A stretch of DNA of 64,000 nucleotides, from positions 7,172-71,171 of the forward strand of contig JBQTGV010000072.1 in NCBI GenBank assembly GCA_052390515.1, in the 5' to 3' direction. Source of the DNA: Candidatus Eiseniibacteriota bacterium (GTDB lineage Bacteria > ARS69). The first letter of the stretch is position 1. Every line of letters starts with the position of its first letter. Under the pieces are notes generated by a model. It made no database searches and was not told the DNA's origin. It was given only the letters and a program-made list of their open reading frames with translations. Below are positions 11,839 through 46,885 of the stretch, piece by piece. The translations under genes and the position numbers were made by a program.

Positions 11839-12966
11839 TCACCACTCCCGCACGTGCTCGTAGAGCGTCGTGCGTTGCATGGCCCGGAAGCCCGCCTCCT
11901 TGATGATCGCCACGCACTCCTCGGTGGTCGTCGTGTTGCGGTGGTTCGCCAAGCGAAGCACATTCTCCTCGATGAGCGTGCCCCCGAAGTCGTCGCCGCC
12001 GGCGTGCAGCGCGACCTGCCCGGTCTTCTTACCCTCGGAGAACCAGCTCGCCTGGACGTGCTCGAAGCAGTCCAGGTAGATGCGGGCCAGCGCGATGATG
12101 CGCAGGTACTTCGGCGGTCCGGGGCTCTCCGGCACCCACTTCTCCAGCAGGGTGTTCCCCGGCTTGAAGCTCCAGGGCACGAACGCGGTGAACCCGCCGG
12201 TCTCGTCCTGCAGCTCGCGGATGCGTCGCAGGTGCTCGACGATCTCCTCGTCGCGCTCGGCGTGGCCGTACATCATCGTCGCCGTCGACCGATAGCCGAT
12301 CTCGTGCGCGGTACGCATCACTTCCAGCCAGTTCTCCGCGGAGGGCTTCTTCGGGCTGATGCGCTTGCGCACCCGATCCACCAGGATCTCCGCGCCTCCT
12401 CCGGGAATCGTGCGCTGCCCCGCGTTCCACAGCTCCTGCAGGACTTCGCGGATGGAAAGGCCCGAGACCTCCGCCATCGTGGCGATCTCCGACGGGCTCC
12501 ACAGGTGCACGCACAGATCCGGGTAGGCCTTCTTCAAAGCTCGCACCACGTCCACGTAGTACGAGAAGGGGATCTCCGGATTGTGCCCGCCCTGCAGCAG
12601 CGAAGTCGTCGCGCCCTTGGTCACGCCGCGGCCCACCATCTCCACGACTTCGTCGACCGAGTGCCAGTAGCCCTCGGGGTGGCCCGGCTTGCGGTAGAAC
12701 GCGCAGAAGAGGCAGTCAGTGACGCACACGTTCGTGTAGTTGGGGTTGGTGTCGATCACGAAGGTGACGAAGTCGCCGGGGGCGCGTCTCCGGCGCATCT
12801 CGGCACCGAGCGCACACAGATCCGAGAGGTGTGCGTCGCGGAGCAGGAACAGCGCGTCCTGCTCGTCGATCCGCTCGCCGTCGAGGACGCGTTCGGAGAG
12901 CTCCACGAAGCGGGCCGGATCGCCGGCCGGCCGGTGCAGGTCCTGCCAGGCGAAGGTCGTCGCCAT
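11839..12966 (-). CDS. Radical SAM enzyme of the MqnC/MqnE family (futalosine-pathway menaquinone biosynthesis)
   Basis: Starts MATTFAWQDL (ATG 12964-12966). Radical-SAM Cys triad CVTDCLFCAF; strong MqnC/MqnE-like conservation (…YWHSVDEVVE…GGDDFGGTLIEENV…). MqnC cannot be told from MqnE by eye. Confidence 0.85.
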   Translation of the reverse strand: MATTFAWQDLHRPAGDPARFVELSERVLDGERIDEQDALFLLRDAHLSDLCALGAEMRRRRAPGDFVTFVIDTNPNYTNVCVTDCLFCAFYRKPGHPEGYWHSVDEVVEMVGRGVTKGATTSLLQGGHNPEIPFSYYVDVVRALKKAYPDLCVHLWSPSEIATMAEVSGLSIREVLQELWNAGQRTIPGGGAEILVDRVRKRISPKKPSAENWLEVMRTAHEIGYRSTATMMYGHAERDEEIVEHLRRIRELQDETGGFTAFVPWSFKPGNTLLEKWVPESPGPPKYLRIIALARIYLDCFEHVQASWFSEGKKTGQVALHAGGDDFGGTLIEENVLRLANHRNTTTTEECVAIIKEAGFRAMQRTTLYEHVREW

Positions 12967-13748
12967 CAGCGCGCCTCCTCCGCTAGCATCGCCTCGAAAG
13001 CCTGCTCGCCGAACGTCTCCACCGGCCCGATCCGGTAGCGGAAGGTCTCCAGGTACTGCCGGATGCTCTCGGCGTCGAGGTCGAACTCCGGCCCTCGGCG
13101 CGCGGCGATCTCCGGAACACGCTCCTCCCACGTCTCCAGCGACCGCTCGAGGCTCGTCCGGATACGCTCCCGGTCCTCCTCCGGGACGTCGCGGGAAACC
13201 ACCCACCGCGCGAAAACGAAGGGCAGCGCCTGCCAGGAGTGCCACTCTTCGCCCAGGTCGTAGACGAAGGGGAATCCTTCCAGCCCTTCGCAGGCGGCGC
13301 GCAACGCGCTGTCACCGATCAGCAGGCGCGCCTCGTCGTTGGGCAGGTCGCCGCGCTCCAGCGTCACGTGCCGCGCTTCGTAGCGGCGGCGCAGGATGAC
13401 CTCCAGCAGCCGCACTGACGTGGAGCTCTCGCCGGTGAGTCCCACGCGACAGCCGGAGAGCCGGTCGATCCCACAGCGGGCGAAGAGCAGCACGGAGTGC
13501 GCCGGACCCTCGCACGCGATCCCGAAGTCGCCGAGCGGCTCGTAACGGTCCCGCAGCCGGAACCAGTCGACCACCGCCATCGGCCCGCAAGTGGCCGCGC
13601 CGGCGTCGGCCAGGCGACCGAGCTCGCGGGGGACCTCCCGGACGACGTCGTACCCGAGCTCGCTCAGCCCCTCGTAGAACGGCTCACAGTTGAGGTACGG
13701 GATGAGCGCGAGCGTCGTCGCGTTCCGCGTCGTGGACTTCGAGTACAT
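12966..13748 (-). CDS. mqnA: Chorismate dehydratase MqnA (futalosine pathway)
   Basis: 260 aa beginning …TLALIPYLNCEPFYEGL, the typical MqnA N-terminus (periplasmic-binding-protein-like fold). 1-nt start/stop overlap with the downstream mqn gene. Confidence 0.8.
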   Translation of the reverse strand: MYSKSTTRNATTLALIPYLNCEPFYEGLSELGYDVVREVPRELGRLADAGAATCGPMAVVDWFRLRDRYEPLGDFGIACEGPAHSVLLFARCGIDRLSGCRVGLTGESSTSVRLLEVILRRRYEARHVTLERGDLPNDEARLLIGDSALRAACEGLEGFPFVYDLGEEWHSWQALPFVFARWVVSRDVPEEDRERIRTSLERSLETWEERVPEIAARRGPEFDLDAESIRQYLETFRYRIGPVETFGEQAFEAMLAEEAR

Positions 13749-14823
13749 GGTAGAGAGCGTTCCTCCGGACGGGTACCTTGCCCGCCTCGCGAATCATCTT
13801 GAGAATGCGGCTCTGGGTGAGCCCCACCGGGCTCGGCGCCAGCGCGAAGTGCGCGATCTTCTCCTCCACGATCGTGCCGTCCACGTCGTCCGCGCCGAAG
13901 TTCAGCGCCACGGACGCGGTCTCCTCGCCGAGCATGACCCAGTACGCCTTGATGTGGTCGAAGTTGTCGAGCAGCAGGCGTGCCGTGGCGATCGTCCGCA
14001 GCCCGTCGTCGGCCGATGCCGGCCGGTCCACCAGCAGGGTCGTACCCAGCTGGTACTCGAGCGGGATGAACGAGAAGAAGCCGCCGGTCTCGTCCTGCAG
14101 GGAGCGCACCTGGATCATGTGGTCCACGCGCTCTTCCAGTGTCTCGATGTGACCGAACAGCAGCGTACAGTTGGAGCGGATGCCCATCCCGTGCGCGATG
14201 CGGTGGATCTCGAACCAGCGCTCGTGCCCCATCTTGTTGTGGTAGAGCTCGCGGCGGATTCGCTCGGAGAAGACTTCCGCCCCGCCGCCGGGCATCGCCA
14301 CCATCCCGGCGTCGCGCAGCGTGCCGAGCACGTCCTCCACGCTCCTCTTGGAGATCCGCGTGAACCAGTCGATCTCGACGGCGGTCCAGGCCTTGATGGG
14401 CAGCCGCGGATAGGCCTCGTGCAGGCGCCGGACGATCTCCACGTAGTCGTCGAACTTCCACCTGGGATGCAGGCCGCCGACGATGTGGATCTCGTCGATC
14501 TCCTCGCTCCCGTGAGCGAGGATCTGCTCCATGGTCATCTCGTAGGCGTGCTCGTCGCCCTTGCGCGCGGCGAAGTCGCAGAACTTGCAGGTGAGCACGC
14601 ACAGGTTCGTCGGGTTGAGCTGGCGATTGAGCACATAGAGCACGCGATCGCCGGTCCTGCGCCGTTTCGCGGCGTCGGCCAGGCGCCCCAGCGCGAAGAG
14701 ATCCGGCGTCGTCAGGCAGGCCATGCCGTCGGCGAAGTCCAGGCGTTCGCCCGCCTCGATTTTCCCGGCGACGCGACGGAGCGCTTCGTCCCGGATCAGC
14801 GTGCAGTCCACGGTGGCGGCCAT
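13684..14823 (-). CDS. Second radical SAM enzyme of the MqnC/MqnE family
   Basis: Conserved part starts MAATVDCTLIRDEAL (ATG 14821-14823) with GGGAGGT 3 nt upstream. Cys triad CVLTCKFCDF. Paralogue of the 11839..12966 gene (…GADDVDGTIVEEKI…). Confidence 0.8.
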   Translation of the reverse strand: MAATVDCTLIRDEALRRVAGKIEAGERLDFADGMACLTTPDLFALGRLADAAKRRRTGDRVLYVLNRQLNPTNLCVLTCKFCDFAARKGDEHAYEMTMEQILAHGSEEIDEIHIVGGLHPRWKFDDYVEIVRRLHEAYPRLPIKAWTAVEIDWFTRISKRSVEDVLGTLRDAGMVAMPGGGAEVFSERIRRELYHNKMGHERWFEIHRIAHGMGIRSNCTLLFGHIETLEERVDHMIQVRSLQDETGGFFSFIPLEYQLGTTLLVDRPASADDGLRTIATARLLLDNFDHIKAYWVMLGEETASVALNFGADDVDGTIVEEKIAHFALAPSPVGLTQSRILKMIREAGKVPVRRNALYHVLEVHDAERDDARAHPVPQL

Positions 14824-14909
14824 GACCTCCCCGGCGGCAAGGGCGCCCATGATGGGGCCAGGGGGCGGGATGATCAAGGCCGTCGGAGCGAGCGCCCGCC
14901 GGGAGCGGG

Positions 14910-15458
14910 TCAAGCCGACCCGCCCCCCAGCGACCTGCGGAGCTCCTCGAGGTCTTCGGCGCCGAGCCCCGAGAAGTGCCGGACGCGCCCGGTCACGTCC
15001 GTGGTCCCGAAGTACTCCATCGAGCACTTCGCGTGCACGTAGCCCGACGGCTCGAAGCGGCCGTCCTGAAAGTAGACGAGCGAGATCCGCCAGTCGCCGC
15101 GCGGAATCGCCTCGCGGCAGCCGCGGCAGCGGGCGCGGCCGTTCGGCGATCGTTCCGCTCCGTCGACGCGCGGGAGGCGCCGGTGCGCGATGCCCGCGCG
15201 GGCCAGCTCGGAGAGGCGCGCCGCGTCGTCGACGGCCGGCTCGCCCTGCGCCAGCACCTCCAGGAAGGGCTCGGGGCGCTTGAGCGCCGCGCACTCGGGG
15301 TGGAACCACAGCGTCATCTCCCCGTCGGCGAACGGGTTCGGCAGACGTTCGCCGAAGCGGAGCTCGCCCTTGGCGATGGCCTGACCGCAGCCCCGGCACT
15401 TCGCCCGGCCGGTCGGCGCGGTCTCGAAGACGTGCGCCAAGGCTAGTCCGTCCCCCAC
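14910..15458 (-). CDS. Protein with two PARP-type zinc-finger-like modules
   Basis: Two repeats: CRGCGQAIAKGELRFG…WFHPEC and CRGCREAIPRGDWRIS…YVHAKC. GTG start at 15458 (alternative TTG at 15440). Overlaps the end of the upstream AhpD-like gene. Confidence 0.6.
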   Translation of the reverse strand: MGDGLALAHVFETAPTGRAKCRGCGQAIAKGELRFGERLPNPFADGEMTLWFHPECAALKRPEPFLEVLAQGEPAVDDAARLSELARAGIAHRRLPRVDGAERSPNGRARCRGCREAIPRGDWRISLVYFQDGRFEPSGYVHAKCSMEYFGTTDVTGRVRHFSGLGAEDLEELRRSLGGGSA

Positions 15459-16024
15459 CGCGCCACGAAGCTCTCCGGCTCCACCCCGAGGGCGTGCGCC
15501 ACGCGGGTGATGTAGTTGAAGTAGGCGATCACCTGCACCGCGTCGTGCAGGGCGACGTCGTCGAGCCCGTGGCGGCGAAGCGTGTCCAGATCCGCCGGAG
15601 CCATCTCGTGCTGGCGGCGCGTCAGCTTCTCGGCGAAGGCGCAGAGCGCCGCGTCCGCCCGCTCGAGTTCGGCCTCCCGCCAGTCCCGGGCGACCGCGTG
15701 CACGAACCGGTCCGCGCGATCGTCGTCCCAGCCGAGCTTGGCGACCTCCGCCCGGAGGTCGTGCGCGTGCGCACGCGTTCAGTACTCGCAGGTCACGGCC
15801 GCGGACGAGACGACGGCCAGCATCTCGCGCTGCACGCGCGTCAGCGCCGACGCACCGTGCATCAGCGCCGCGTAGTGCCGCAGGCTCGCGTCCATGACCG
15901 GCGGGTTCAGCGACATGACGTGGACGATGTTCCAGACGCGTCCGGCGCGCGCGATGGCGTCATCGAACTGCTTCTTGAGGAAGCCGGTCGCCTCCCCCAC
16001 GCCGATCTGACGGATCCACGGCAA
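15443..16024 (-). CDS. AhpD-like / carboxymuconolactone-decarboxylase-family peroxidase-related protein with in-frame UGA (candidate selenocysteine: C-x-x-U-x3-H in place of the family's CxxC-x3-H)
   Basis: ORFs 15779..16024 and 15443..15703 are in the same frame, separated by a single TGA (15779-15781) and 25 sense codons. The joined product MPWIRQIGVGE…AAVTCEY[U]TRAHAHDL…QVIAYFNYITRVAHALG is a full-length carboxymuconolactone-decarboxylase-family protein (~194 aa). TTG start with GGAAGGAGGG Shine-Dalgarno. Confidence 0.7.
15740..15778 (-). promoter_or_regulatory. Candidate bacterial SECIS-like stem-loop immediately 3' of the in-frame UGA
   Basis: mRNA reads UGA-ACGCGUGCGCACGCGCAC-GACCUCC-GGGC-GGAGGUC. 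A perfect 7-bp stem with a G-rich 4-nt apical loop starts 19 nt after UGA; the spacer is itself palindromic (GCGUGCGCACGC). Confidence 0.5.
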
Positions 16025-16173
16025 AGCGGGCCCTCCTTCCGCGGCGGGACGGACCGGGGAAGTTCTACCCCCGCGCGCCGCGCCCGCGCAATGACCCGAC
16101 CAGGGCGCTGAATCCGGCGGGCCGACCGGCCGAAGACAGGAGGGTCCTGCCCACTCCTCCCGAGGACCGCCTG

Positions 16174-17316
16174 ATGGCTCGTATCCTCGTCGCCGACGAC
16201 GTCCCCTTCATCGCGGCGATGATCGGCTCCGTGTTCGAGAGGGAGGGCCACGAGGTGGCCATCGCAGCCGACGGCGCGGAGGCCGTCCGCAAGGCGAAGG
16301 ATCTGCTCCCCGATCTCATCCTGCTGGACCTCGTGATGCCGGGGACCGACGGCCTCGAGGCTGCCACGCGGATCAAGAGCGACAGCTCCACCCACCACAT
16401 CCCCATCATGATGATCAGCGCTTTGGGCGACTTGCGCACGATTTCGGACGCGTTCGCCGCGGACGTCGCCGAGTTCGTGACCAAGCCGTTCGAGGCCGAC
16501 GAGCTGCTGGAGAAGGCCTCGATGCTCCTCGGCAGCTTCCGCATGACCTACTCCATCAGCGACGAGAAGCGCATCCCCACCGTCACCGTCCTGCACGACG
16601 AGCTCGCGCTGGAGACGTTCGACCTGCTGCTGCACGCGCTGCGCACCGCCCAGGGCAGCGGCGCGCGCCCGATCGTGCTGGACCTGTCCCGCGTGAGGCG
16701 GCTCGCCGCGGAGACCGAGGCCGAGATCGGCGCCTTCGCGACGAAGATCCGCGAGCTGGGCGAGGACCTGCACATCGTTCGCCCGGAGGCGGGCACGCGC
16801 GCGAGCCAGATCTTGCCGGGCGTCACCGGCGAGCTGAGCCTGCACGACAGCAAGAGCCGTGCGGTGAGCGCGGCCCGTCGCACTGCCCGGGCGCAGGGCT
16901 TCCTCTCCGGTGTGATGACGCCGCTCCCGTCGGCGCCGGCCCAGCGGCCACCCTCCGGGGGCGAAGCGATCCGCTTCGACGTGCTGGACACCCTGGCCAT
17001 GGTCCGCCTGCCCGGTCCGGAGGTCCGCGCCGAGGAGCTCGTCGCCATCGAAGAGGGGCTTCCCCGTTCCGCCCACGTGCTCCTGCTCGACCTTTCCGAG
17101 ATCCGGGAGCTGTCCGCCGCGCGCATTCGGGAGCTCGGGGAGCTCGTCGACCGGATCAGCCTGACCGGGCGGCGCGTGAAGCTGGTCAATCCGTGCCCAG
17201 CGGCCGCGGATGCCCTCCGAGAGGGTGGGCAGGCAGCGAACCTGTTCACCTTGAAGGGTCGACCGCGCGGGTTCCGCCCGGCCGGAGCTGATCCGCAACG
17301 ACCGGGACCGAGGTAG
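16174..17316 (+). CDS. Response-regulator receiver domain protein with C-terminal STAS (anti-sigma-factor-antagonist-like) domains
   Basis: N-terminal CheY-like REC (MARILVADDVPFIAAMI…DLILLDLVMPGTDGLEA…KPFEADEL), followed by two STAS-like segments. Confidence 0.8.
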   Translation: MARILVADDVPFIAAMIGSVFEREGHEVAIAADGAEAVRKAKDLLPDLILLDLVMPGTDGLEAATRIKSDSSTHHIPIMMISALGDLRTISDAFAADVAEFVTKPFEADELLEKASMLLGSFRMTYSISDEKRIPTVTVLHDELALETFDLLLHALRTAQGSGARPIVLDLSRVRRLAAETEAEIGAFATKIRELGEDLHIVRPEAGTRASQILPGVTGELSLHDSKSRAVSAARRTARAQGFLSGVMTPLPSAPAQRPPSGGEAIRFDVLDTLAMVRLPGPEVRAEELVAIEEGLPRSAHVLLLDLSEIRELSAARIRELGELVDRISLTGRRVKLVNPCPAAADALREGGQAANLFTLKGRPRGFRPAGADPQRPGPR

Positions 17317-24519: not shown

Positions 24520-25157
24520 GATTCCCGGCAGCCTCCGACCGCGTTCTGCTACCCTGGCTCGGGCCGGCGCGGAGGCTGCCCTTGTCGACCACGGAGCAAG
24601 TCCGCGGGCTCCTCGACGGGATGCGGGCGGGGAACGCCGAGGCCCGGGACCGTCTGTTCTCCATCGTGTACCACGACCTCCGTCGCATCGCCCGGAGCCA
24701 CCTCCGCGGCCGGTCCACCGGCACGCTCGGCACGACGGCGATGGTCAACGAAGCCTACTTGCGCCTCGCCGGACCGAACGTCGGCCCCTGGCAGGACCGC
24801 GCGCACTTCTTCGCCGTGGCCTCTCGCGCCATGCGGCAGATCCTCGTCGACCAGGCACGGCGGAAGCTCGCGCAGAAGCGAGGAGGCGGCGCGCCCGTCA
24901 CCAGCTTCGAGTCGCGGGACGCGGGCGAGGAGCCGCGCTTCCTCGAGCTGATCGAGCTGGACGACGCGCTGGGACGTCTCGCCGCGCTCAACGAGCGCCT
25001 GGCGCGCATCGTCGAGCTTCGCTTCTTCGGTGATCTCTCCGAGCAGGAGACGGCCGAAGCGCTCGGCGTCAACGAACGCACCGTGCGCCGCGACTGGCGC
25101 AAGGCGCGCGCGTTCCTGCATCACGTCCTCCGCGAGCCGAAGGCGGGCGGCGAGTGA
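24516..25157 (+). CDS. ECF-type sigma-70 family RNA polymerase sigma factor (kinase-associated subgroup)
   Basis: In-frame tail of ORF 23202..25157. Region 2 and region 4 helices are present (…VYHDLRRIARSHL… …LSEQETAEALGVNERTVRRDWRKARAFL). ATGA overlap on both sides. Confidence 0.8.
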   Translation: MRFPAASDRVLLPWLGPARRLPLSTTEQVRGLLDGMRAGNAEARDRLFSIVYHDLRRIARSHLRGRSTGTLGTTAMVNEAYLRLAGPNVGPWQDRAHFFAVASRAMRQILVDQARRKLAQKRGGGAPVTSFESRDAGEEPRFLELIELDDALGRLAALNERLARIVELRFFGDLSEQETAEALGVNERTVRRDWRKARAFLHHVLREPKAGGE

Positions 25158-27964
25158 CCTCCGGCGACCGCTGGGCGGCCATCGAGGCGATCCTCGACGA
25201 GTTGTTGGAGCTGGCTCCGGGAGAGCGCAGCGTGCGCCTCGTGCAGCTCGCCGCGGGGGACGAGGAGCTCCGCGCGGAGATCGAGGCGCTGCTGGCCGAG
25301 GACCAGGGCGAGAACGGTCCGCTCGATCGCCGCCTCGACTCCGTCGCGGCTGCGCTGCTGGACGACACGGACACGCCCTCCCAGGAGGGGCGCCTCATCG
25401 GACCGTATCGGGTGGTCCGGGAGCTCGGCCGCGGGGGAATGGGCGAGGTCCTGCTCGCCGAGCGCGCGGACGGGCAGTTCGAGCAGCAGGTGGCGCTGAA
25501 GATCGTTCGTGGCGGACTGAACCGCGAGGACATCCTCCGGCGATTCCGCCACGAGCGGACCATCCTCGCCCGGCTGCGCCATCCCAACATCGCCTTGCTG
25601 CACGACGGCGGTATCGCGGCGGACGGCGTGCCCTACTTTGCCATGGAGTACGTGCAGGGCGAGCCCATCACGGACTACTGCGACCGCCGGACCCTGGGCA
25701 TCCCGGAGCGGATCGCGCTCTTCGAGTCGGTGTGCCGCGCGGTGCAGTACGCGCACCGCAACCTGGTGATCCACCGCGACCTGAAGCCGAGCAACGTGCT
25801 GGTCACCGCCGACGGAGTGCCGAAGCTGCTCGACTTCGGCATCGCCAAGGTCATCAACCCGGGAGTGGACGATCCCACCCAAGCCACCCGCGGCTTCCTC
25901 ACCCCCGCGTACGCGGCTCCCGAGCAGATCCGCGGCGAGCCGACGTCCACCGCGACGGACGTCTTCTCGCTGGGCGTGCTCCTCTACGTCCTGCTCGCCG
26001 GGCATCACCCCCACGGCGACACGTCCAGCTCCGTCACCGTGGCGCGCGCGATCGTGGAAGAGGATCCGGTGGAGCCCAGCACCGTTGCCGGCAGGAGCAG
26101 CGACGCCGCCCGCCTGCGACGTGCCGACCCCGCCGAGCTCAGGCGCGCGCTGCGCGGCGATCTCGACAACATCGTGGCCAAGGCGCTGCGTAAGAACGCC
26201 GATGACCGCTACGCGTCCGTCGACGATCTGCGCACCGATCTCGAGCGCCACCGCGGCTCGCTCCCGGTGTCCGCGCGTCCGGCCACCGCGCGCTACCGGA
26301 TGCACAAGTTCGTGCGGCGACATCGCGTCGGTGTCGCGGCGGCGGCCGCCGCCGCTCTCGCCCTCGCGGCCGGTGTCGCGGGGATCGCGTGGCAGGCGAA
26401 CGTCGCCGCCCGCGAGCGGGACCGCGCTCGCGCCGTGAAGGACTACTTGCTGGAAGTGTTCTCCGGAGCCGACCCGGCGATCGAATCCGGCGAGACCCTC
26501 ACGGCGCTGGAGCTCGTGGAGCGCGGGGCCGCGCGCGTGTCGGATCGTTTCGCTCACAGCCCGGGGATCCGCGCCGAGGTCATGCAGACGCTCGGCGCCG
26601 TTCTCACCAGCCTGGGGCGGTATGAACGTGGAGACTCGCTGCTCTCCACCGCCCTGGTGGAGCTTCGGCACGAAGGGCGCGAGGAAGCGGTGGTGGAGAC
26701 GCTTCATCGCCTGGGCGGCAACGCCCGCGCACGCGGCGACTTCGACCTGGCTGCGGCGCGCTACGAAGAAGCCGTACGCATCGCCCGCGAGGCGTTCGGC
26801 GAGCGGGACTCGCTGGCCGCGAGCGCGCTCGGCGAGCTCGGCATGGTGCTCACGGACCAGGCGAAGTACGACGAGGCCGAGGCCGTGCTCGGCGAGGCGC
26901 TGGCGGCCGCGAGGGCGGGACGCCATCGCCGGCTTCCCCACCACCTGTCCAACCTGGCGAACCTCGAGCAGAAGCGCGGGCGGCTGGAGGCGGCGGAGGC
27001 CCTCTACCGCGAGTCGATCGAGCTGCACCGCGCGTCGGCGCCGCACGGAGACGTGGCCACGGCGCGGGCGATGAGCGAGCTCGCCTCCGTGCTCCTCCAG
27101 CTAGGCCGGGTGAGCGAAGGGGAGAGTCTGAACCGAGAGGCCCTGGCGATGCTCCGCCGCGAATACGGAGAAGCCGGGCATCCCGAGGTCGCCACCGCCC
27201 TCAACAACCTCGCCGGGGCCGTCCTGATGAGCAGGCGGTGGGCGGAGGCCGAGCCCCTGCTGCTCGAGGCGCTGGCCATGCACCGGCGGTTCCTCGACGA
27301 CAGCGGGGCCATCTCCAGCACGTTGTCGAACCTCGCCGTGGCGCGGGGCGAGCAGGGTGATCTCGAAGGCGCCGAGCGGTACATCGGCGAAGCGATCGAG
27401 TCGATTCGGCGAGCGCTGGGTGACCGACACCCTGAGCTCGTCATTCCCCTCTTGAACCGCGGCTCCGTTCTCCGGAACCTGCGTCGGTTCGATGAAGCCG
27501 AACCGGTCCTGCAGGAAGCCTTGGCGATCGCCCGAGAAACGCTCGGTGAGCATCATCGCGACACGTGCACCGCGATGCTACATCTCGCGGCGCTGTACCG
27601 CGACAGCAAGAGGCTGGAGGACTCGGAGCGCGCGTATCGCGAGGCCGCTTCGGCTTATCGGGGTGCGCTCGGGGAGGGTCATCCCGAGGAGATCGACGCA
27701 CGCATCGAGTGGGCGCGCATCGTGGCGAAGCTCCGGAGAACCAGGGAGTCGCAGCAGATGCTGGACCGCACCATCGCCGATGCACGCGCGGGTGGGGCGG
27801 AGGCGCGGTTTGTCCTGTCCCGAGCCCTCTTGGAGCGCGCCATGGTCGGAGGCGACGACGTGCTGGTGAGCGAGGCCTACGAGATCCGCCGCGCGGAGCT
27901 CGGCGAGCAGCATCCGATGACCGTCGCGGCAAGGTCCGAGCTGGAGCGGAGAGGCGGTCTCTAG
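25154..27964 (+). CDS. Serine/threonine protein kinase with TM helix and C-terminal TPR repeats
   Basis: Hanks-kinase motifs (GRGGMGEV, VALK, HRDLKPSNVL, DFGIAK, APE). One TM segment (VGVAAAAAAALALAAGVAGIAW), then ~550 aa of TPR-like repeats. Confidence 0.9.
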   Translation: MTSGDRWAAIEAILDELLELAPGERSVRLVQLAAGDEELRAEIEALLAEDQGENGPLDRRLDSVAAALLDDTDTPSQEGRLIGPYRVVRELGRGGMGEVLLAERADGQFEQQVALKIVRGGLNREDILRRFRHERTILARLRHPNIALLHDGGIAADGVPYFAMEYVQGEPITDYCDRRTLGIPERIALFESVCRAVQYAHRNLVIHRDLKPSNVLVTADGVPKLLDFGIAKVINPGVDDPTQATRGFLTPAYAAPEQIRGEPTSTATDVFSLGVLLYVLLAGHHPHGDTSSSVTVARAIVEEDPVEPSTVAGRSSDAARLRRADPAELRRALRGDLDNIVAKALRKNADDRYASVDDLRTDLERHRGSLPVSARPATARYRMHKFVRRHRVGVAAAAAAALALAAGVAGIAWQANVAARERDRARAVKDYLLEVFSGADPAIESGETLTALELVERGAARVSDRFAHSPGIRAEVMQTLGAVLTSLGRYERGDSLLSTALVELRHEGREEAVVETLHRLGGNARARGDFDLAAARYEEAVRIAREAFGERDSLAASALGELGMVLTDQAKYDEAEAVLGEALAAARAGRHRRLPHHLSNLANLEQKRGRLEAAEALYRESIELHRASAPHGDVATARAMSELASVLLQLGRVSEGESLNREALAMLRREYGEAGHPEVATALNNLAGAVLMSRRWAEAEPLLLEALAMHRRFLDDSGAISSTLSNLAVARGEQGDLEGAERYIGEAIESIRRALGDRHPELVIPLLNRGSVLRNLRRFDEAEPVLQEALAIARETLGEHHRDTCTAMLHLAALYRDSKRLEDSERAYREAASAYRGALGEGHPEEIDARIEWARIVAKLRRTRESQQMLDRTIADARAGGAEARFVLSRALLERAMVGGDDVLVSEAYEIRRAELGEQHPMTVAARSELERRGGL

Positions 27965-28802: not shown

Positions 28803-30566
28803 CTAGATCGCGTACTCCTTCCACCGCCGGTCGACCTTGGCCACGATCTCCGGATCCATCACCAGCGGCTCGGGATAGCCCTGCTTGAACGTCGCGTCGA
28901 TGGCCATGCGGCCGCGGTGCACGGGCCAGGCGCCGTGCAGCTCCGACTGCTCGAAGAACACGTCGCGGGCGGGATCGAAGCGCGTGAAGATGCCCCACAT
29001 CAATTGAGTGCGGTCGTCGAGCGGCACGTCCGGGGAGACTGCCGCGACGATGCGGGGCAGTGCCGCCTGCGGGAGCGCGCGCATCGCCGCGGCCAGAGCC
29101 CCTCGCGGCGACTCCTCCACGTGAATTGCCAGCAGCGTGCGCCCGAACAGCGCCTGTCCCCGGATGCGCCGGTCGACGAGCGACAGGTCGGGAACGGCCG
29201 GCAGCTCCGCTGGCGTGGCTCGGGTCCGCGGCGTCGCGTCGACGATCATCTTGCTGCCGAGGTTCGGAGTGAAGCTGGTGAAGTCCAGCGTGTCGAACGG
29301 CACGCGCGGCAGCAGCAGGAAGTCCTCCTCCGGATCGAAGTTCCTGGCGATGGCCTCGAGAACCTCGTCGAGGTTCCGCGGATTCACCGTGCGACCCACC
29401 ATCACGACGACCTTGGTCAGCCCGAGCTGGCCCTGCCCCAGGAGCCCGAACGCCGTGCGCATCGCCTCCTTGGCGAACCGCTGCTCCACCGACGCGACCA
29501 GCAGGTGGTGGAACCCCGTCTCCTCGAACGCCCACACGTCGCGCACCTCGGGATGCGGCAGCCGGATGAGCGGCCCGATCAGTTCCTGCACGAGGTTGCC
29601 CATGAAGCCGTCCTCCTGCGGCGGCTTGCCGACGACGATCGCGGGGTAGATCGCGTCCTTCCGGCGAAAGACCTTGCGCGCGCGGAACACCGGGAAGGGC
29701 GCCGCCGCGGAGTAGTGGCCGAAGTGATCGCCGAAGGGCCCCTCGCGCCGGCGCTCGCCCGCGGCCACGCTGCCTTCGATGACGAACTCCGCGCCCCGCG
29801 GCACCGGTAGATCCACGGTGACGCCGCGGGAGAGCTCCACTCCCCTACCGCGGAGCAGCCCGACGAAGGCGGTCTCGGGCAGTCCCTCGGGGAGCGGCAT
29901 CATCGCGGCGAGCATGAGCAGAGGGTCCCCTCCCAGCGCCACCGCGACCGGCAGCGATTTGCGCTCCTCCTCCGCCTCGAAGTGGTGGTAGCCGCCGCCC
30001 TTCCCGATCTGGAAGTGCATTCCCGTCTCGGTCGAGTCGTAGACGTGCATGCGGTAGATGCCGACGTTCAGCGAGGCATCGCGCGGGCTGCGCGTGAAAA
30101 CCATCGGGAACGTGAGGAAGGGGCCGCCGTCACCCGGCCAGCAGGTGAGCGCCGGCAGCTGGGTCAGGTCGGGATCCTCCTCGACCTCGCGGACCGGGCC
30201 GCCGGAGGAGATTCGCGGCTTCATGCCGCGGAAGCGCATCAGGTCGGGCAGGTGCCTGAGCAGCAGGCCCGCGCTGGGCGGGTTCAGGTCCTTGGCCAGC
30301 TTCACCAGGGACTCGCCGATCTCAGCCGCCGGCCGGCCGAGCACCAGCTCGATGCGCCGGCGCGAGCCGAACAGGTTGATCGCCAGCGGGAAGGTGCTGC
30401 CTTCGACGCGCTCGAAGAGGAGAGCCGGGCCTTCGCCCCGGACGACGCGTTGCACGATCTCGGTGATCTCGAGCCGCGGGTCGACGGGGACTTTCACCCG
30501 GCGAAGCTCACCCGCCGCCTCGATGGCACGGAGGAATGCGCGAAGGTCGGTGATCGGGCTCGGCAA
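28803..30566 (-). CDS. ubiD: UbiD-family prFMN-dependent decarboxylase (candidate menaquinone/futalosine-pathway decarboxylase)
   Basis: 587 aa. Typical UbiD N-terminus MPSPITDLRAFLRAIEAAGELRRVKVPVDPRLEITEI and conserved core. Confidence 0.85.
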   Translation of the reverse strand: MPSPITDLRAFLRAIEAAGELRRVKVPVDPRLEITEIVQRVVRGEGPALLFERVEGSTFPLAINLFGSRRRIELVLGRPAAEIGESLVKLAKDLNPPSAGLLLRHLPDLMRFRGMKPRISSGGPVREVEEDPDLTQLPALTCWPGDGGPFLTFPMVFTRSPRDASLNVGIYRMHVYDSTETGMHFQIGKGGGYHHFEAEEERKSLPVAVALGGDPLLMLAAMMPLPEGLPETAFVGLLRGRGVELSRGVTVDLPVPRGAEFVIEGSVAAGERRREGPFGDHFGHYSAAAPFPVFRARKVFRRKDAIYPAIVVGKPPQEDGFMGNLVQELIGPLIRLPHPEVRDVWAFEETGFHHLLVASVEQRFAKEAMRTAFGLLGQGQLGLTKVVVMVGRTVNPRNLDEVLEAIARNFDPEEDFLLLPRVPFDTLDFTSFTPNLGSKMIVDATPRTRATPAELPAVPDLSLVDRRIRGQALFGRTLLAIHVEESPRGALAAAMRALPQAALPRIVAAVSPDVPLDDRTQLMWGIFTRFDPARDVFFEQSELHGAWPVHRGRMAIDATFKQGYPEPLVMDPEIVAKVDRRWKEYAI

Positions 30567-30612
30567 CGGGGGGCTCTCCGGACGACGCCAGTCGGGTGGT
30601 CGACGCTAGCAG

Positions 30613-30641
30613 CGGCCCCCCAGGCCGTCAACGAGGGGACT
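30613..30641 (-). promoter_or_regulatory. Putative promoter of UbiD-like gene: TTGACG-N17-TAGCGTCG
   Basis: On the minus strand: cgTTGACGgcctggggggccgctgcTAGCGTcg, ~47 nt upstream of the ATG. The extended -10 region ctgcTAGCGTcg is identical to the UbiX-like promoter at 36884-36913. Confidence 0.45.
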
Positions 30642-30707
30642 GAAACGGGAAGGCCGGCCTTCCGATGGACGAAGGGAGGTCCGAACCCCTTTCCCGGCGG
30701 CTACCCG

Positions 30708-32741
30708 ATGGCGACCCAGTTTCGCGGCTACACCATCCTCGAGACCCTCGGAATCGGCGGCATGGCCTCCGTGTTCCTCGGGGTCCAGGAGAACCTCAAG
30801 CGCCACGTGGCCATCAAGCTGCTGGACAAGCGCCTGGCCCTCTCCGAGGACTTCGTGCGGCGCTTCGAGCGCGAAGCGCGCGCCGCCTCCGAACTGAACC
30901 ACCGTAACATCATCACCATCCACGAGTTCGGCAACGAGGGCGGCGACTACTTCATCGTCATGGAGCACGTGAAGGGATCGGATCTGCAGGCCGTGCTCGA
31001 CCGCGTCACCCGCTTTCCGCCGGAGATCGCGCTGGTGATCCTCGAGGAAGTGGCCACCGGCCTCGCCGCCGCGCACGAGAAGGACATCGTGCATCGGGAC
31101 ATCAAGCCGGCGAACGTGCTGCTCTCCCACAACGGCGACGTGAAGATCACCGACTTCGGTCTGGCGCGGGACTACAGCCTGGATGCGAGCCGGCTCTTCG
31201 ACAGCCTGACTGTCGGCGGCACGGTGCTGGGTACGCCGTCGTACATGTCGCCGGAGCAGGCGTCGGGGCTGTCGCTCGATCACAAGACCGACACGTTCGC
31301 GCTGGGTGTGATGGCCTACGAGATGTTCACCGGGCAGAAGCCCTTCCCGGGCGAGACCTACTCGGCCATCCGCGAGGCGATCCTGGAAGGCGAGCCGCGT
31401 CCGCTCACGCTGCAGCGCCCGCTGGCCACCCCGCAGATCGAGGACATGGTCCGGCGGATGCTGGCGAAGGCGCCGGAGCACCGACCGGACATGCGCCAGC
31501 TCCTGCACATGGTCGAGGCCTGCATGGAGACGGTGGACCCCTCGGGGATGCTGCTGCGCCATCGCCGCCGCTTCCTCGAGAAGTTCGCCGCGGATCCTGA
31601 GAGTTTCTCCTCCCGGCTCGAGCAGGTCGTCGTGCAGAAGAGCCTCGGCCGCGGCCTCTACGCGAAGGCGCTGGGCCTGGAGCGGCTGGACGTCGCGCTG
31701 GAGCATCTGGAGTACGTGCAGCAGAAGGACCCGCAGAACAGCAAGGCGAAGCGCGCGATCGCCGAGATCGTCGACTACGGGAGCGGGACCACCCGGGACC
31801 GCCGATCGAAGGCACCGGCTCGGCCGGAGCGGACCCAGATCGATCGGGCGCCGCGGAAGCCGCGCGTGCGCGTGCCGGAGATCTCGCTCGGGATCGTGAT
31901 CCTCGCCGCGGCGTCCTTCGGCGTCGTCCGCTCCGGGCTGGTGGATCGACTCACCGCGCGAACCGAGCTGGCGGTAGCCGCTCCGACCACGCCCTCGGCG
32001 AGTCCGCCCCCCGCGGTGACGTCGGCCGCGACGACGGCGCTGCCGCCCGCACTCGCCCTTCCGTCCGATCCTCAGCCCGCGGGAACGCCGCCGGCCGATC
32101 TGCCGTCCGCCGAGCCCGCGCCTGCCCAGAAGCCGGCACCGGCCGTCGCGTCCCGGCAGGAGTCGGAGCCGGTTCGCGCCGTCGAGGATGGGGCGCCCGA
32201 GGTCGAGGCCCCGAAGCCTGCACCGCCCAAGGACAGCTGGGTGCGCGTGCGCACGGAACCGGCCGGGAACATCCTCCTGAACGGGAAGCTGCTGGAGTCC
32301 GGTTCCACCGGGCTCGTCTCGCGGGTCGCGCCCGGCGAGACCGTCACGCTGGAGGTGCGGCATCCGGAGCTCTTCGGCTCCAAGACCTGGACGCGGAAGG
32401 TCGCGCCCGGCGACACGCTCGATCTGGGGAAGTACGCCGTGAAGACGGGCACCCTTCGCGTGTCGACCCGCCCGCCGACTCCGGTCGAGGTGCTGATCGA
32501 CGGGCGGGAGACGCGCAAGGAGACCCCCCTGGCCCTGACCGTGACGAGCCGGCAGCAGGTCGTCTCCATCCAGGCACCGGGCTGGATCGTCGAGAAGGCG
32601 GTGGTGAGCGAGCGCAGCGGCGAGGGCACCGCGCGGGAGATCGTGCCCGAGGATCCCGCGCGATTCGCCGGCGTGCCGGTCGACGTCGGCGAGGGACAGG
32701 ACCTCAAGGTCGTCTTTCACCTGGCCAAGGCCGGGGGCTGA
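30708..32741 (+). CDS. Serine/threonine protein kinase with C-terminal PEGA domains
   Basis: The kinase domain starts at MATQFRGYTILETLGIGGMASV (ATG 30708), with HRDIKPANVLL, DFGLAR, SPEQ. One TM helix, an A/P-rich linker, then PEGA repeats (VRTEPAGNILLNGK…, VSTRPPTPVEVLIDGRE…). The upstream 242 aa of the track ORF are artefact. Confidence 0.85.
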   Translation: MATQFRGYTILETLGIGGMASVFLGVQENLKRHVAIKLLDKRLALSEDFVRRFEREARAASELNHRNIITIHEFGNEGGDYFIVMEHVKGSDLQAVLDRVTRFPPEIALVILEEVATGLAAAHEKDIVHRDIKPANVLLSHNGDVKITDFGLARDYSLDASRLFDSLTVGGTVLGTPSYMSPEQASGLSLDHKTDTFALGVMAYEMFTGQKPFPGETYSAIREAILEGEPRPLTLQRPLATPQIEDMVRRMLAKAPEHRPDMRQLLHMVEACMETVDPSGMLLRHRRRFLEKFAADPESFSSRLEQVVVQKSLGRGLYAKALGLERLDVALEHLEYVQQKDPQNSKAKRAIAEIVDYGSGTTRDRRSKAPARPERTQIDRAPRKPRVRVPEISLGIVILAAASFGVVRSGLVDRLTARTELAVAAPTTPSASPPPAVTSAATTALPPALALPSDPQPAGTPPADLPSAEPAPAQKPAPAVASRQESEPVRAVEDGAPEVEAPKPAPPKDSWVRVRTEPAGNILLNGKLLESGSTGLVSRVAPGETVTLEVRHPELFGSKTWTRKVAPGDTLDLGKYAVKTGTLRVSTRPPTPVEVLIDGRETRKETPLALTVTSRQQVVSIQAPGWIVEKAVVSERSGEGTAREIVPEDPARFAGVPVDVGEGQDLKVVFHLAKAGG

Positions 32742-44599: not shown

Positions 44600-45837
44600 A
44601 CCGGGCGAAGGTGTGGCTCATCATCCGCCGCGAGTACCTGGAGAGCGTGCGGAAGAAGTCCTTCCTCTTCGGACTCGTGGCGACGCCGCTGATCTTCGTG
44701 ACGGTGATGTTCGTGCCCATCCTGGCCACGGGACTGCTGGCCGACGGCGAGGTCCAACTCTCCGTGGTCGACGAGACCGGGGTCTACGGCGAGAAGCTGC
44801 GGGCTGCGCTCGAGGGAGGGGAGGCGGGAACCGCCGGCTTCCGCCCTACGGTCACGGTGTGGAGCGCGGGCGAGGGGCCGGAAGCGGCCGAGCTGGATGA
44901 CGCGGTGGCGCGCGGCGAGTTGTCCGGCTGGATCCGCCTGCCCGCGGACTTCGAGCAGACCGGCGCACTCGAGCTGCACGCGCAGTCCGTCCTGGATCTG
45001 GCCGCCCTGGAAGCCATCGAGAACCGCGCGACCTCCATCCTCTCCGAGAAGAAGGCGGCGGATCTTGGTCTCGAGTCGGAGCAGGTTCGCCAGCTGCTGC
45101 AGCGGGCGGACCTCAAGGTGTTCCGCGCGGGGGACGCGGCGAAGGAGACGGACCCCGAGCAGCTCTACCTGCGCGCCGTGATCCTGGTCATGATGCTCTT
45201 CTTCGCCCTGCTCCCGACCGGACAGATCCTGATGCGCAGCGTGATCGAGGAGAAGGCGAACCGCGTGGTGGAGGTGCTGGTTTCCAGCGTCACGCCGCGG
45301 GAGATCATGGTGGGCAAGATCCTCGGCCTGGGCGCGGTCGGCCTGACCCTGATCGGCGCCTGGGCGGCGGCCGGTGGACTTCTCGCCTGGCGGTCCGGCA
45401 GCGCCACCCTCCCCGTCGGCGGGGGCGAGATCGGCATCTTCCTGCTCTACTTCTTCCCGGGCTACTTCCTGTACGCCGCGCTCCTCGGCGCCATCGGCTC
45501 GGTGTGCAGCTCCGAGCGGGACGCGCAGCCCTTCCTGACGCCGATCTCGCTGCTCCTCGTGCTGCCGGTGATGGCCGGTTTCGCCATCGCGCAGAATCCC
45601 GATCACCTGGCGGCGCGCGTGCTCTCGTTCGTGCCGCTGGTGACGCCGAGCCTCATGGTGTTCCGGTACACCATCCAGCCGCCACCGGCCTGGGAGATCG
45701 CCGCGACCTGGCTCGTCCTCGTCGCGTCGACTGTGGGCATGTTCTGGATCTCGGCCAGGGTGTTCCGCACCGGGATCCTGATGATCGGGAAGCGCCCGAC
45801 CCTCCCCGAGATCGCGCGGTGGGTGTGGGCGCGGTAG
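44596..45837 (+). CDS. ABC-2 type transporter permease
   Basis: ATGA overlap with the ATPase gene. N-terminal TM helix, large extracytoplasmic loop, five C-terminal TM helices (…IEEKANRVVEVLVSSVTPREIMVGKILGLGAVGL…). Confidence 0.85.
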   Translation: MNRAKVWLIIRREYLESVRKKSFLFGLVATPLIFVTVMFVPILATGLLADGEVQLSVVDETGVYGEKLRAALEGGEAGTAGFRPTVTVWSAGEGPEAAELDDAVARGELSGWIRLPADFEQTGALELHAQSVLDLAALEAIENRATSILSEKKAADLGLESEQVRQLLQRADLKVFRAGDAAKETDPEQLYLRAVILVMMLFFALLPTGQILMRSVIEEKANRVVEVLVSSVTPREIMVGKILGLGAVGLTLIGAWAAAGGLLAWRSGSATLPVGGGEIGIFLLYFFPGYFLYAALLGAIGSVCSSERDAQPFLTPISLLLVLPVMAGFAIAQNPDHLAARVLSFVPLVTPSLMVFRYTIQPPPAWEIAATWLVLVASTVGMFWISARVFRTGILMIGKRPTLPEIARWVWAR

Positions 45838-45889
45838 GCCGCTCCCGCTCCGGCGGAGCTCCGGCAGCGAACACAGGTGGAGCCGCTCG

Positions 45890-46885
45890 ATGAGGATCGT
45901 CAGGGAGTCGCGGATCCGCGCGCCCGAGCTCGTCGCCGCGGGCTGGGCCACGAGCGATTCGCGCCTCATCGGAGCGATGCGTGGCAGCGTCGTCCTGCTG
46001 GACTTCTTCTCCTTCGCCGATCCGGCGGGCGTCCGCGAGATCGCCCACGTCCGCCGACTGGCCGAGCATTACGCCGCGTCCGGTCTCGTCGTCGTCGGGG
46101 TCCACGTTCCCGCGTACGACTTCGAGCGCCCGCTGGAAGCCGCCCGCCGCGAGATCTGGCGCCTCGGGATCCCGTATCCGGTGGCGCTCGATCAGGCGCT
46201 CTCGCTCTTCCAGGCCTACGAATGCCGCAACCTTCCCGCGCGGTACGTGATCGACGCCCAGGGCTTCGTCCGCGCCTGGCACCACGGAGCGGGCGGCTTG
46301 GCCGAGGCGGAGCGGGTCGTCCGCACGCTCCTGCGGGAGGCTCGCCCGGACCGGCGCCTCCCGCCCCTCGCGGAGCGGACCGAGGGGGTCGCGCTGGCCG
46401 GTCGCGTGACCTGGTACTCCACGCCGGAGATCCTCTTCGGCACCCGCGGAGCGGGCTTCGGCCCGCCGGACTCCTCCGGGCCCGCCCCCGCCGACGGCGA
46501 GACGCGTACCTTCGGGGAGCTCCCCGATCTCCGGGCGCCGGGCGTCGCGCAGCTCGAGGGCGAATGGACCGTGCGTGCCGACCGGATCGTCTCGCAGAGC
46601 GAAGAGGGAGCGGTGGCGGTCGTGTTCGAGGGCTCTTCCGTGCTCGGCGTCCTGTCCCCCGAGGGACGCGACGACCGGGAGGAAGATCCCCACGTCCAGG
46701 TGATCCTGGACGGCGACCCCGCGGCGGGCATCCCGGATCCGCTCCCCGTCGGCGAAGGACGCCTCTACGAATTGGTCTCGTCGGCGGACTTCGGGATCCA
46801 TAATCTCCACCTGCGAGTGCGGGGTCGCGGCCTTTCGCTGCACCTGCTGCACTTCGGCAGCACCGAAGTGCCCGAGGAGGCCTGA
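45890..46885 (+). CDS. Thioredoxin-fold (TlpA/redoxin-like) protein lacking the CxxC cysteines, with C-terminal extension
   Basis: VVLLDFFSFADPAGVREIAHVRRLAEHYAASGLVVVGVHVP…IPYPVALDQ aligns to TlpA/ResA-type redoxins, but the active-site position reads SFAD rather than CxxC. Confidence 0.6.
   Translation: MRIVRESRIRAPELVAAGWATSDSRLIGAMRGSVVLLDFFSFADPAGVREIAHVRRLAEHYAASGLVVVGVHVPAYDFERPLEAARREIWRLGIPYPVALDQALSLFQAYECRNLPARYVIDAQGFVRAWHHGAGGLAEAERVVRTLLREARPDRRLPPLAERTEGVALAGRVTWYSTPEILFGTRGAGFGPPDSSGPAPADGETRTFGELPDLRAPGVAQLEGEWTVRADRIVSQSEEGAVAVVFEGSSVLGVLSPEGRDDREEDPHVQVILDGDPAAGIPDPLPVGEGRLYELVSSADFGIHNLHLRVRGRGLSLHLLHFGSTEVPEEA

Follow-up and report, generated by a model that had tools for sequence, protein, structure and literature searches.

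An AhpD-like CxxU gene with an in-frame UGA and a conserved downstream hairpin as a probable selenoprotein gene of a Candidatus Eiseniibacteriota bacterium

A gene on the minus strand of a 64,000-nucleotide (nt) stretch of DNA from a Candidatus Eiseniibacteriota bacterium (GenBank assembly GCA_052390515.1, contig JBQTGV010000072.1, positions 7,172 to 71,171 of the forward strand; hereafter, the window) very probably encodes a selenoprotein related to AhpD. We propose, with a probability of roughly 0.9, that UGA codon 82 of this gene encodes selenocysteine (Sec) through a downstream hairpin. It is likewise highly probable that positions 16024..15443 of the window form one gene for an ~21-kDa AhpD-like thiol/selenol oxidoreductase with the active site Cys79-x-x-Sec82-x-x-x-His86. 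The locus had been pointed out in an earlier inspection of the DNA letters without database searches (the sequence-only reading). It was followed up here by family and structure searches, by a comparison with relatives in other species, and by analysis of the hairpin.

Results

Translation of the minus strand from 16024 to 15443 gave 193 codons in one reading frame, counting Sec82, followed by a TAG stop (15445-15443), and the coding sequence is complete. Its TTG start (16024-16022) agrees with the N termini of homologues (MPWI...), and a Shine-Dalgarno-like AGGAGG, read from the sequence, lies 7 nt 5' of it at 16032..16037 on the same strand. The joined frame contains one internal stop only, the TGA of codon 82 at 15781..15779, in the context VTCEY*TRAHAHDLRAEV, and the residues around it read V-T-C-E-Y-[TGA]-T-R-A-H-A-H-D-L-R-A-E-V. 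A listing of open reading frames (ORFs) splits the gene at this point into 15779..16024 (81 amino acids [aa]) and 15443..15703 (86 aa), both on the minus strand and in the identical frame, with a gap of 75 nt (25 codons) between the TGA and the GTG at 15703. The sequence-only reading had described the same two ORFs, parted by one TGA and 25 codons, and its coordinates match those obtained here. TGA is also the commonest ordinary stop in the window (20 of 31 ORFs), and a six-frame scan based on G+C content at third codon positions (GC3) found a coding-like in-frame TGA at this site alone in the 64 kb. A recoded genome is excluded because TGA is both the predominant stop and found in-frame at only this one coding-like site.

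Family and structure searches were run on the joined protein, with Cys put in at the UGA for the Pfam match. The protein matched Pfam CMD (PF02627; CMD/AhpD superfamily) and the NCBIfam model TIGR01926 ("peroxidase-related enzyme"), the latter with 118.6 bits against a curated cutoff of 81.8 and over residues 3-184 of 193; both matches agree with the carboxymuconolactone-decarboxylase family to which the sequence-only reading had assigned the protein. TIGR00778 (ahpD core domain) gave 33.3 bits, and NF041238 (AhpD_rel_CFYUT (seleno)protein) gave 64.4 bits, which is below its cutoff of 175, in a match confined to the C-terminal half of a model of 357 positions. No AhpD equivalog model was present among the six matching NCBIfam families. 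Solved structures were matched over residues 16-184 with E values from 4e-27 to 4e-15, the best being 6k40 (E = 4e-27), with 2oyo, 2pfx, 2prr, and 3c1l also found. The structure alignment covers residues 16 to 184 without a break at the UGA, and therefore the 81- and 86-aa ORFs are parts of one domain and not two genes.

The same alignments place the UGA at a catalytic position of the family. In 6k40, 2oyo, and 2pfx, the UGA codon (15779..15781) aligns with the second Cys of the motif C-x-Y-C-x-x-x-H, and His86 aligns with the motif His. Distant homologues carry TGC at the UGA site, with the motifs CFYCTEAH (L087) and CHYCISHH (L089). The sequence-only reading had suggested that its proposed Sec be aligned with Cys-containing homologues, and this residue indeed falls on the second Cys of the three structures and on the TGC of the two distant homologues. 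Among the 81 relatives over which codons were counted, the Cys79 codon that opens the CxxU redox motif (TGC here, 15788..15790) is TGC or TGT in all 81. The His of the CxxU-x3-H motif (His86, CAC at 15767..15769) is invariant, being encoded by CAC in 63 and by CAT in 18.

Conservation of the TGA itself was assessed in a tblastn scan with one genome per species, which returned 421 relatives, and the DNA of the best 80 was examined. These 80 are 58-68% identical to the protein over residues 1-193, across the TGA and with both protein halves conserved, and they come from genomes or metagenome-assembled genomes of Gemmatimonadota, Chloroflexota, Acidobacteriota, and Actinomycetota. At the aligned position, 80/80 have TGA and 0/80 have TGC or TGT. 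Close relatives with TGC and without the hairpin had been named as the finding that would speak against a selenoprotein; the relatives instead carry TGA throughout, together with a conserved hairpin, as described below.

This distribution bears most directly on the alternative raised alongside the original observation, namely that an ancestral Cys codon (TGC or TGT) was mutated or miscalled to TGA, leaving a pseudogene in two dead fragments or a sequencing error. Such a change would be easy to make, TGA being one nucleotide from both TGC and TGT. Gene callers do split the gene, and no Sec machinery was seen in the 64-kb window. Neither a local mutation nor a miscall, however, fits with a TGA at the same codon in every one of the best 80 relatives from other species. 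Moreover, the frame after the TGA is intact and coding-type, with a GC3 of 0.93, the protein is conserved to its last residue, and the hairpin, of the selenocysteine insertion sequence (SECIS) type, is conserved with covariation. We therefore reject the pseudogene and regard this whole explanation as extremely improbable.

Protein databases record the same codon in misleading ways. Dozens of database proteins of ~110 aa start right past the UGA position (MQAHAHDLR...), and therefore their gene calls have been truncated at the same TGA. Many other database homologues show Trp at the Sec site, which could be taken to favor non-Sec recoding, in which the UGA would be read as Trp, Gly, or Cys by an alternative code or by near-cognate readthrough and the hairpin would be merely stimulatory. 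In the two checked cases that proved to be TGA (P0012/L088 and P0002/L092), however, the Trp had been produced by a gene caller translating with code 4. A Trp subfamily or a code-4 organism was accordingly rejected as an explanation of these entries; of those checked, only P0004 is a true TGG. Also against such recoding are the stop codon usage of the window, where in-frame TGA occurs in no other gene, and the identity of the site as the family's redox-active Cys, a position at which Sec would be functional but Trp or Gly would not. We consider it very improbable that the UGA is decoded as anything other than Sec.

True replacements of the TGA were also seen. The P0004 group (L001-L003) has a genuine TGG on 12 contigs and retains the SECIS hairpin, P0016/L090 has CGA (Arg) at the Sec codon, and P0018/L091 has GGA (Gly) with a degraded hairpin. 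Each of these codons is one nucleotide from TGA, and they may represent Sec-loss alleles.

The hairpin provides the second body of comparative evidence and was aligned over 77 distinct relatives. From the UGA to position +39, no indels occur among them, and the position of the hairpin is fixed. The clade consensus is a 6-bp stem (GACCUC / GAGGUC) closing the loop C-G-(G/U)-G-N-N, and this core stem is kept in 75 of the 77. When the helix is taken as seven pairs, 97% of the cells in the alignment are standard pairs, whereas slid controls, with the 3' partner displaced by 1-3 columns, give 22-45%. Pair 24-37 covaries, being C-G in 63 sequences, U-A in 12, and something else in 2, and 0/500 column shuffles reached either the observed covariation score or the observed double-change count. 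The compensatory change combines a synonymous change at Asp (GAC to GAU) with a Val-to-Ile replacement (GUC to AUC), a coupling that is hard to explain by selection on the protein alone.

Codon choice within the element points in the same direction. Synonymous sites inside the stem are frozen, with Leu encoded by CTC and Glu by GAG in 81/81 relatives each. The Arg codon of the loop is CGG in 41 and CGT in 40, and never CGC, CGA, or AGR, whereas the neighboring His and Ala codons vary over all of their synonyms. The AT-rich relative from a hydrothermal vent (L088) keeps the hairpin in the form GACCUC-CGUGUU-GAGGUU. In the TGC homologue L087, on the other hand, GAUCUCCACGCCGAGGCG forms no stem, and the hairpin is absent from the TGC homologue L089.

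In the Eiseniibacteriota copy, the candidate SECIS hairpin occupies 15742..15761 on the minus strand and reads GACCUCC-GGGC-GGAGGUC, beginning 18-19 nt 3' of the UGA. Its 5' arm lies at 15760-15754, the loop at 15753-15750, and the 3' arm at 15749-15743; a flanking pair, C15761-G15742, lengthens the stem to 8 bp, and the segment codes for D-L-R-A-E-V. The 7-bp stem with a tetraloop 19 nt from the UGA that was recognized in the sequence-only reading is thus present in this copy, but it is not the conserved core, which has the 6-bp stem and 6-nt loop of the clade. Folded alone, the hairpin reaches -14.0 kcal/mol (z = -4.1), and 0/200 shuffles were as stable. The surrounding 76 nt, folded together, do not exceed their shuffles in stability (z = 0.26), in DNA of 70% G+C, and therefore the hairpin of a single sequence would be unconvincing on its own; the comparative data lift it above chance.

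Between the UGA and the hairpin lies a spacer (15762..15778, minus strand) coding for T-R-A-H-A-H, in which a palindrome had also been noted. The palindrome, GCGTGCGCACGC, is perfect, and a spacer mini-helix folds in this copy, but it is not conserved and forms no part of the element: over the 77 sequences, only 41% of its cells are paired, which is no better than the slid controls, and there are 0 compensatory changes. A lower stem or second helix formed by the spacer was ruled out on the basis of this control-level pairing, and the palindrome is a by-product of the A-H-A-H codons.

The conserved hairpin was then compared with a published model. The bacterial SECIS (bSECIS) model, as given in a 2026 review (PMC13188914), specifies a loop of 3-9 nt, an upper stem between 4 and 16 bp long, a G within the first two nucleotides of the loop, mostly with G or U after it, a UGA-to-loop distance of 16-37 nt, and a minimum free energy (MFE) of <= -7.5 kcal/mol. 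The loop and stem measure 4 nt and 7-8 bp in this copy and 6 nt and 6 bp in the clade consensus. The loop is GGGC here and C-G-(G 41 / U 40)-G-N-N in the clade, and the G(G/U) loop rule predicts exactly the observed limitation of the Arg codon to CGG and CGU. The UGA lies 24-25 nt from the loop, a spacing identical in the 77 distinct sequences. The MFE is -14.0 kcal/mol for this copy and -8.0 for the commonest clade variant, with the GAU/AUC variant alone reaching only -6.1. The geometry had been judged compatible with a bacterial SECIS from the letters alone, and all four features of the published model are indeed found.

Several observations weigh against Sec insertion at this codon. The stem is also under the constraint of the peptide DLRxEV that it encodes, such that part of the nucleotide conservation could be at the protein level, and the U-A cases of the covarying pair are all from Chloroflexota, such that this single pair may reflect few evolutionary events. 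No Rfam family was matched, either at the gathering threshold over the whole window or in a permissive search of 15650-15850, which returned a chance hit (E = 9). As for the decoding machinery, selA, selB, and selD were not found in the 64-kb window by tblastn with the E. coli SelA, SelB, and SelD proteins (E >= 0.17), and ARAGORN found no tRNA-Sec there. In the related loci, tblastn gave no SelA, SelB, or SelD match in 481 kb (3-kb flanks), and ARAGORN gave no tRNA-Sec in 24 loci. The absence of sel genes says little, because 64 kb is no more than a small fraction of the genome.

The missing machinery would nevertheless suit a relic selenoprotein gene, one inherited with its SECIS by an organism that has since lost selABCD, in which the UGA would terminate translation and the 81-aa fragment would be the only product. 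The rare one-step replacements of TGA in other lineages (TGG in L001-3, CGA in L090, and GGA in L091) are also the pattern expected when lineages abandon Sec. Without Sec decoding, however, the frame and the hairpin should decay or the TGA should be replaced, and here the frame, the catalytic residues, and the 8-bp hairpin are all intact; the smallness of the genome sample again deprives the absent sel genes of most of their force. A relic gene is accordingly unlikely, and Sec insertion at UGA82 remains the explanation that we favor.

Neighboring genes and other features of the window

Directly 3' of the selenoprotein gene, on the same strand, is a gene for a 182-aa protein (14913-15458) in which Pfam zf-PARP (E = 2e-22) marks two zinc-finger regions of the PARP type. 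The start of this gene abuts or overlaps the selenoprotein stop codon, and the two genes may be cotranscribed. Farther downstream and also on the minus strand is a futalosine-pathway menaquinone gene cluster (11839-14850), which comprises two radical SAM enzymes of the CofH/MqnC/MqnE type (11839-13308 and 13687-14850) and an MqnD-like VitK2_biosynth protein (12969-13793). Divergent from the selenoprotein gene, on the plus strand, 16174-17316 encodes a response-regulator receiver domain and two weak STAS-like regions, an architecture that looks like an anti-sigma-antagonist type. A gene for a B12-radical SAM enzyme is also among the neighbors. When the zf-PARP, MqnD/E, response-regulator, and B12-radical SAM genes were sought in the related loci, no shared synteny was found beyond weak radical-SAM similarity, and therefore the gene context gives no functional clue. 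The only AhpC/TSA-domain gene among the ORFs scanned, which is fused to a C-terminal Thioredoxin_10 domain, lies at 45785-46882 on the plus strand. It is ~30 kb away, and an operon linking the AhpD-like gene to a peroxiredoxin partner is therefore not evident.

Elsewhere in the window, two candidate features were considered and set aside. An ARAGORN "tmRNA*" call at 30039-30755 on the minus strand (a permuted transfer-messenger RNA of 717 nt with the tag AGAHLLAG) is most likely a false positive, as the call falls within the UbiD-family ORF at 28806-30605 (minus strand) and no Rfam tmRNA was found in the window. A duplication relating the plus-strand ORFs 25034-27961 and 29811-32738, both stop-to-stop and of an identical length of 976-977 codons, was also rejected, since they have only a Ser/Thr kinase domain in common (34% identity over 229 aa). 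The first of these ORFs contains long TPR arrays. The second overlaps the UbiD-family ORF, which is on the other strand, and its 5' part is therefore probably noncoding.

Discussion

A working model of decoding at this locus can be proposed from these observations. The UGA at 15781..15779 would not be read as a stop, and the hairpin 18-19 nt downstream would act as a bacterial SECIS, recruiting the complex of SelB, GTP, and Sec-tRNA(Sec) to the ribosome stalled at UGA82. Sec would then be inserted, and translation would continue for another 111 codons. For this organism, SelB-dependent insertion is inferred, whereas the one frame, the family assignment, the alignment of Sec with Cys, the conserved TGA, and the conserved, covarying hairpin of SECIS type were observed directly. 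The bases of the hairpin would be dual coded, serving both as the SECIS and as codons for the conserved peptide D-L-R-x-E-V/I, which is the same overlap that complicates the interpretation of stem conservation.

The redox role of the protein can be outlined by analogy with characterized AhpD proteins. In Mycobacterium tuberculosis AhpD, the second Cys (Cys133) of the CxxC motif is the attacking nucleophile, and it is the second Cys that aligns with the UGA in the present gene. The Cys79/Sec82 pair would cycle between a reduced form and a selenenylsulfide, with Cys79 resolving the intermediate. The reducing equivalents may be delivered to a peroxiredoxin-type partner or to peroxide directly; both this redox role and the partner are inferred.

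A broader and more tentative reading concerns the clade as a whole. Its members may be obligate users of Sec, spread over at least four phyla (Gemmatimonadota, Chloroflexota, Acidobacteriota, and Actinomycetota) and sharing a minimal, near-identical SECIS embedded in an invariant HDLRxEV segment; we regard this as possible but doubtful. In keeping with it, no reversion to Cys was found among the 80 closest species, and the only escapes seen were the rare one-step TGG, CGA, and GGA alleles. If the clade were truly obligate in this sense, Cys would be unable to replace Sec functionally in these proteins, and the compact SECIS would be portable, being recognized by very divergent SelB proteins.

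The practical significance of the locus lies mainly in annotation. The gene exemplifies a standard failure, in which a selenoprotein gene is either split in two or has its TGA translated as Trp, and this error is widespread in public protein databases. Correct annotation would add one selenoprotein to the organism and would imply both a Sec-decoding trait and a need for selenium. The comparative signal is also very clean: synonymous sites are frozen, one pair shows a compensatory change, and Cys homologues have lost the hairpin. This signal could be used to train or benchmark bacterial SECIS models. Biologically, nothing here is new in kind, as AhpD-like CxxU proteins with SECIS elements have been described since 2005.

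Comparison with known systems

Among Cys-containing proteins, the M. tuberculosis AhpD, a lipoamide-dependent AhpC reductase, shares with the present protein the superfamily fold and the CxxCxxxH motif. It is nonetheless distant in sequence, as indicated by the 33.3 bits of the TIGR00778 match, and the gene described here has no adjacent ahpC; the protein is not a canonical AhpC-linked AhpD. Closer in sequence-to-structure searches are the AhpD-like protein DR1765 of Deinococcus radiodurans (6k40), which is the closest characterized relative, and the structural-genomics entries 2oyo, 2pfx, 2prr, and 3c1l, titled "uncharacterized peroxidase-related proteins"; all of these have the CxxCxxxH register in common with the present protein but use Cys and lack a SECIS. 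Nor do DR1765 and the structural-genomics proteins have the HAHDLRxEV segment as it is conserved in the Sec clade. According to the summary in PMC8945050, a DR1765 knockout is sensitive to H2O2, and complementation requires the CxxC cysteines.

At the RNA level, the hairpin has no sequence resemblance to the SECIS of E. coli fdhF. It shares all four structural features with the bSECISearch consensus (Zhang & Gladyshev 2005) and differs from it in having no conserved lower stem, the spacer helix not being conserved. Whereas the clade consensus has 6 bp and a 6-nt loop, one or two additional closing pairs bring the Eiseniibacteriota copy to 7-8 bp with a GGGC loop.

The closest counterpart is the family of AhpD-like selenoproteins, and the occurrence of CxxU forms in other bacteria, which the sequence-only reading had mentioned, is well established (PMC1088965, PMC2398784, and PMC13188914). 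Zhang, Fomenko & Gladyshev introduced the AhpD-like CxxU proteins in 2005 in their account of the Sargasso Sea selenoproteome, where this new family comprised 27 sequences, was assigned to COG2128, and had predicted SECIS elements (PMC1088965). In the Global Ocean Sampling (GOS) data, "AhpD-like 1" ranked fourth in abundance among selenoprotein families, with 299 Sec forms and 902 Cys homologues (PMC2398784). The 2026 review lists "AhpD-like protein, TIGR01926, CxxU" among bacterial selenoprotein families (PMC13188914), and BSepDB carries a page for the AhpD-like family (PMC13326102). The present gene resembles this family in its TIGR01926 score above the cutoff, its CxxU motif, in which Sec takes the place of the second Cys, its SECIS-type hairpin directly 3' of the UGA, and its G in the first loop positions. 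Nothing essential sets it apart, this copy being 58-68% identical to the nearest relatives found; an exact-match search of the assembly index with the 81-aa N-terminal product gave no hit. As judged from these sequence-level features, all of which are present, the gene is a genuine member of the AhpD-like selenoprotein family known since 2005.

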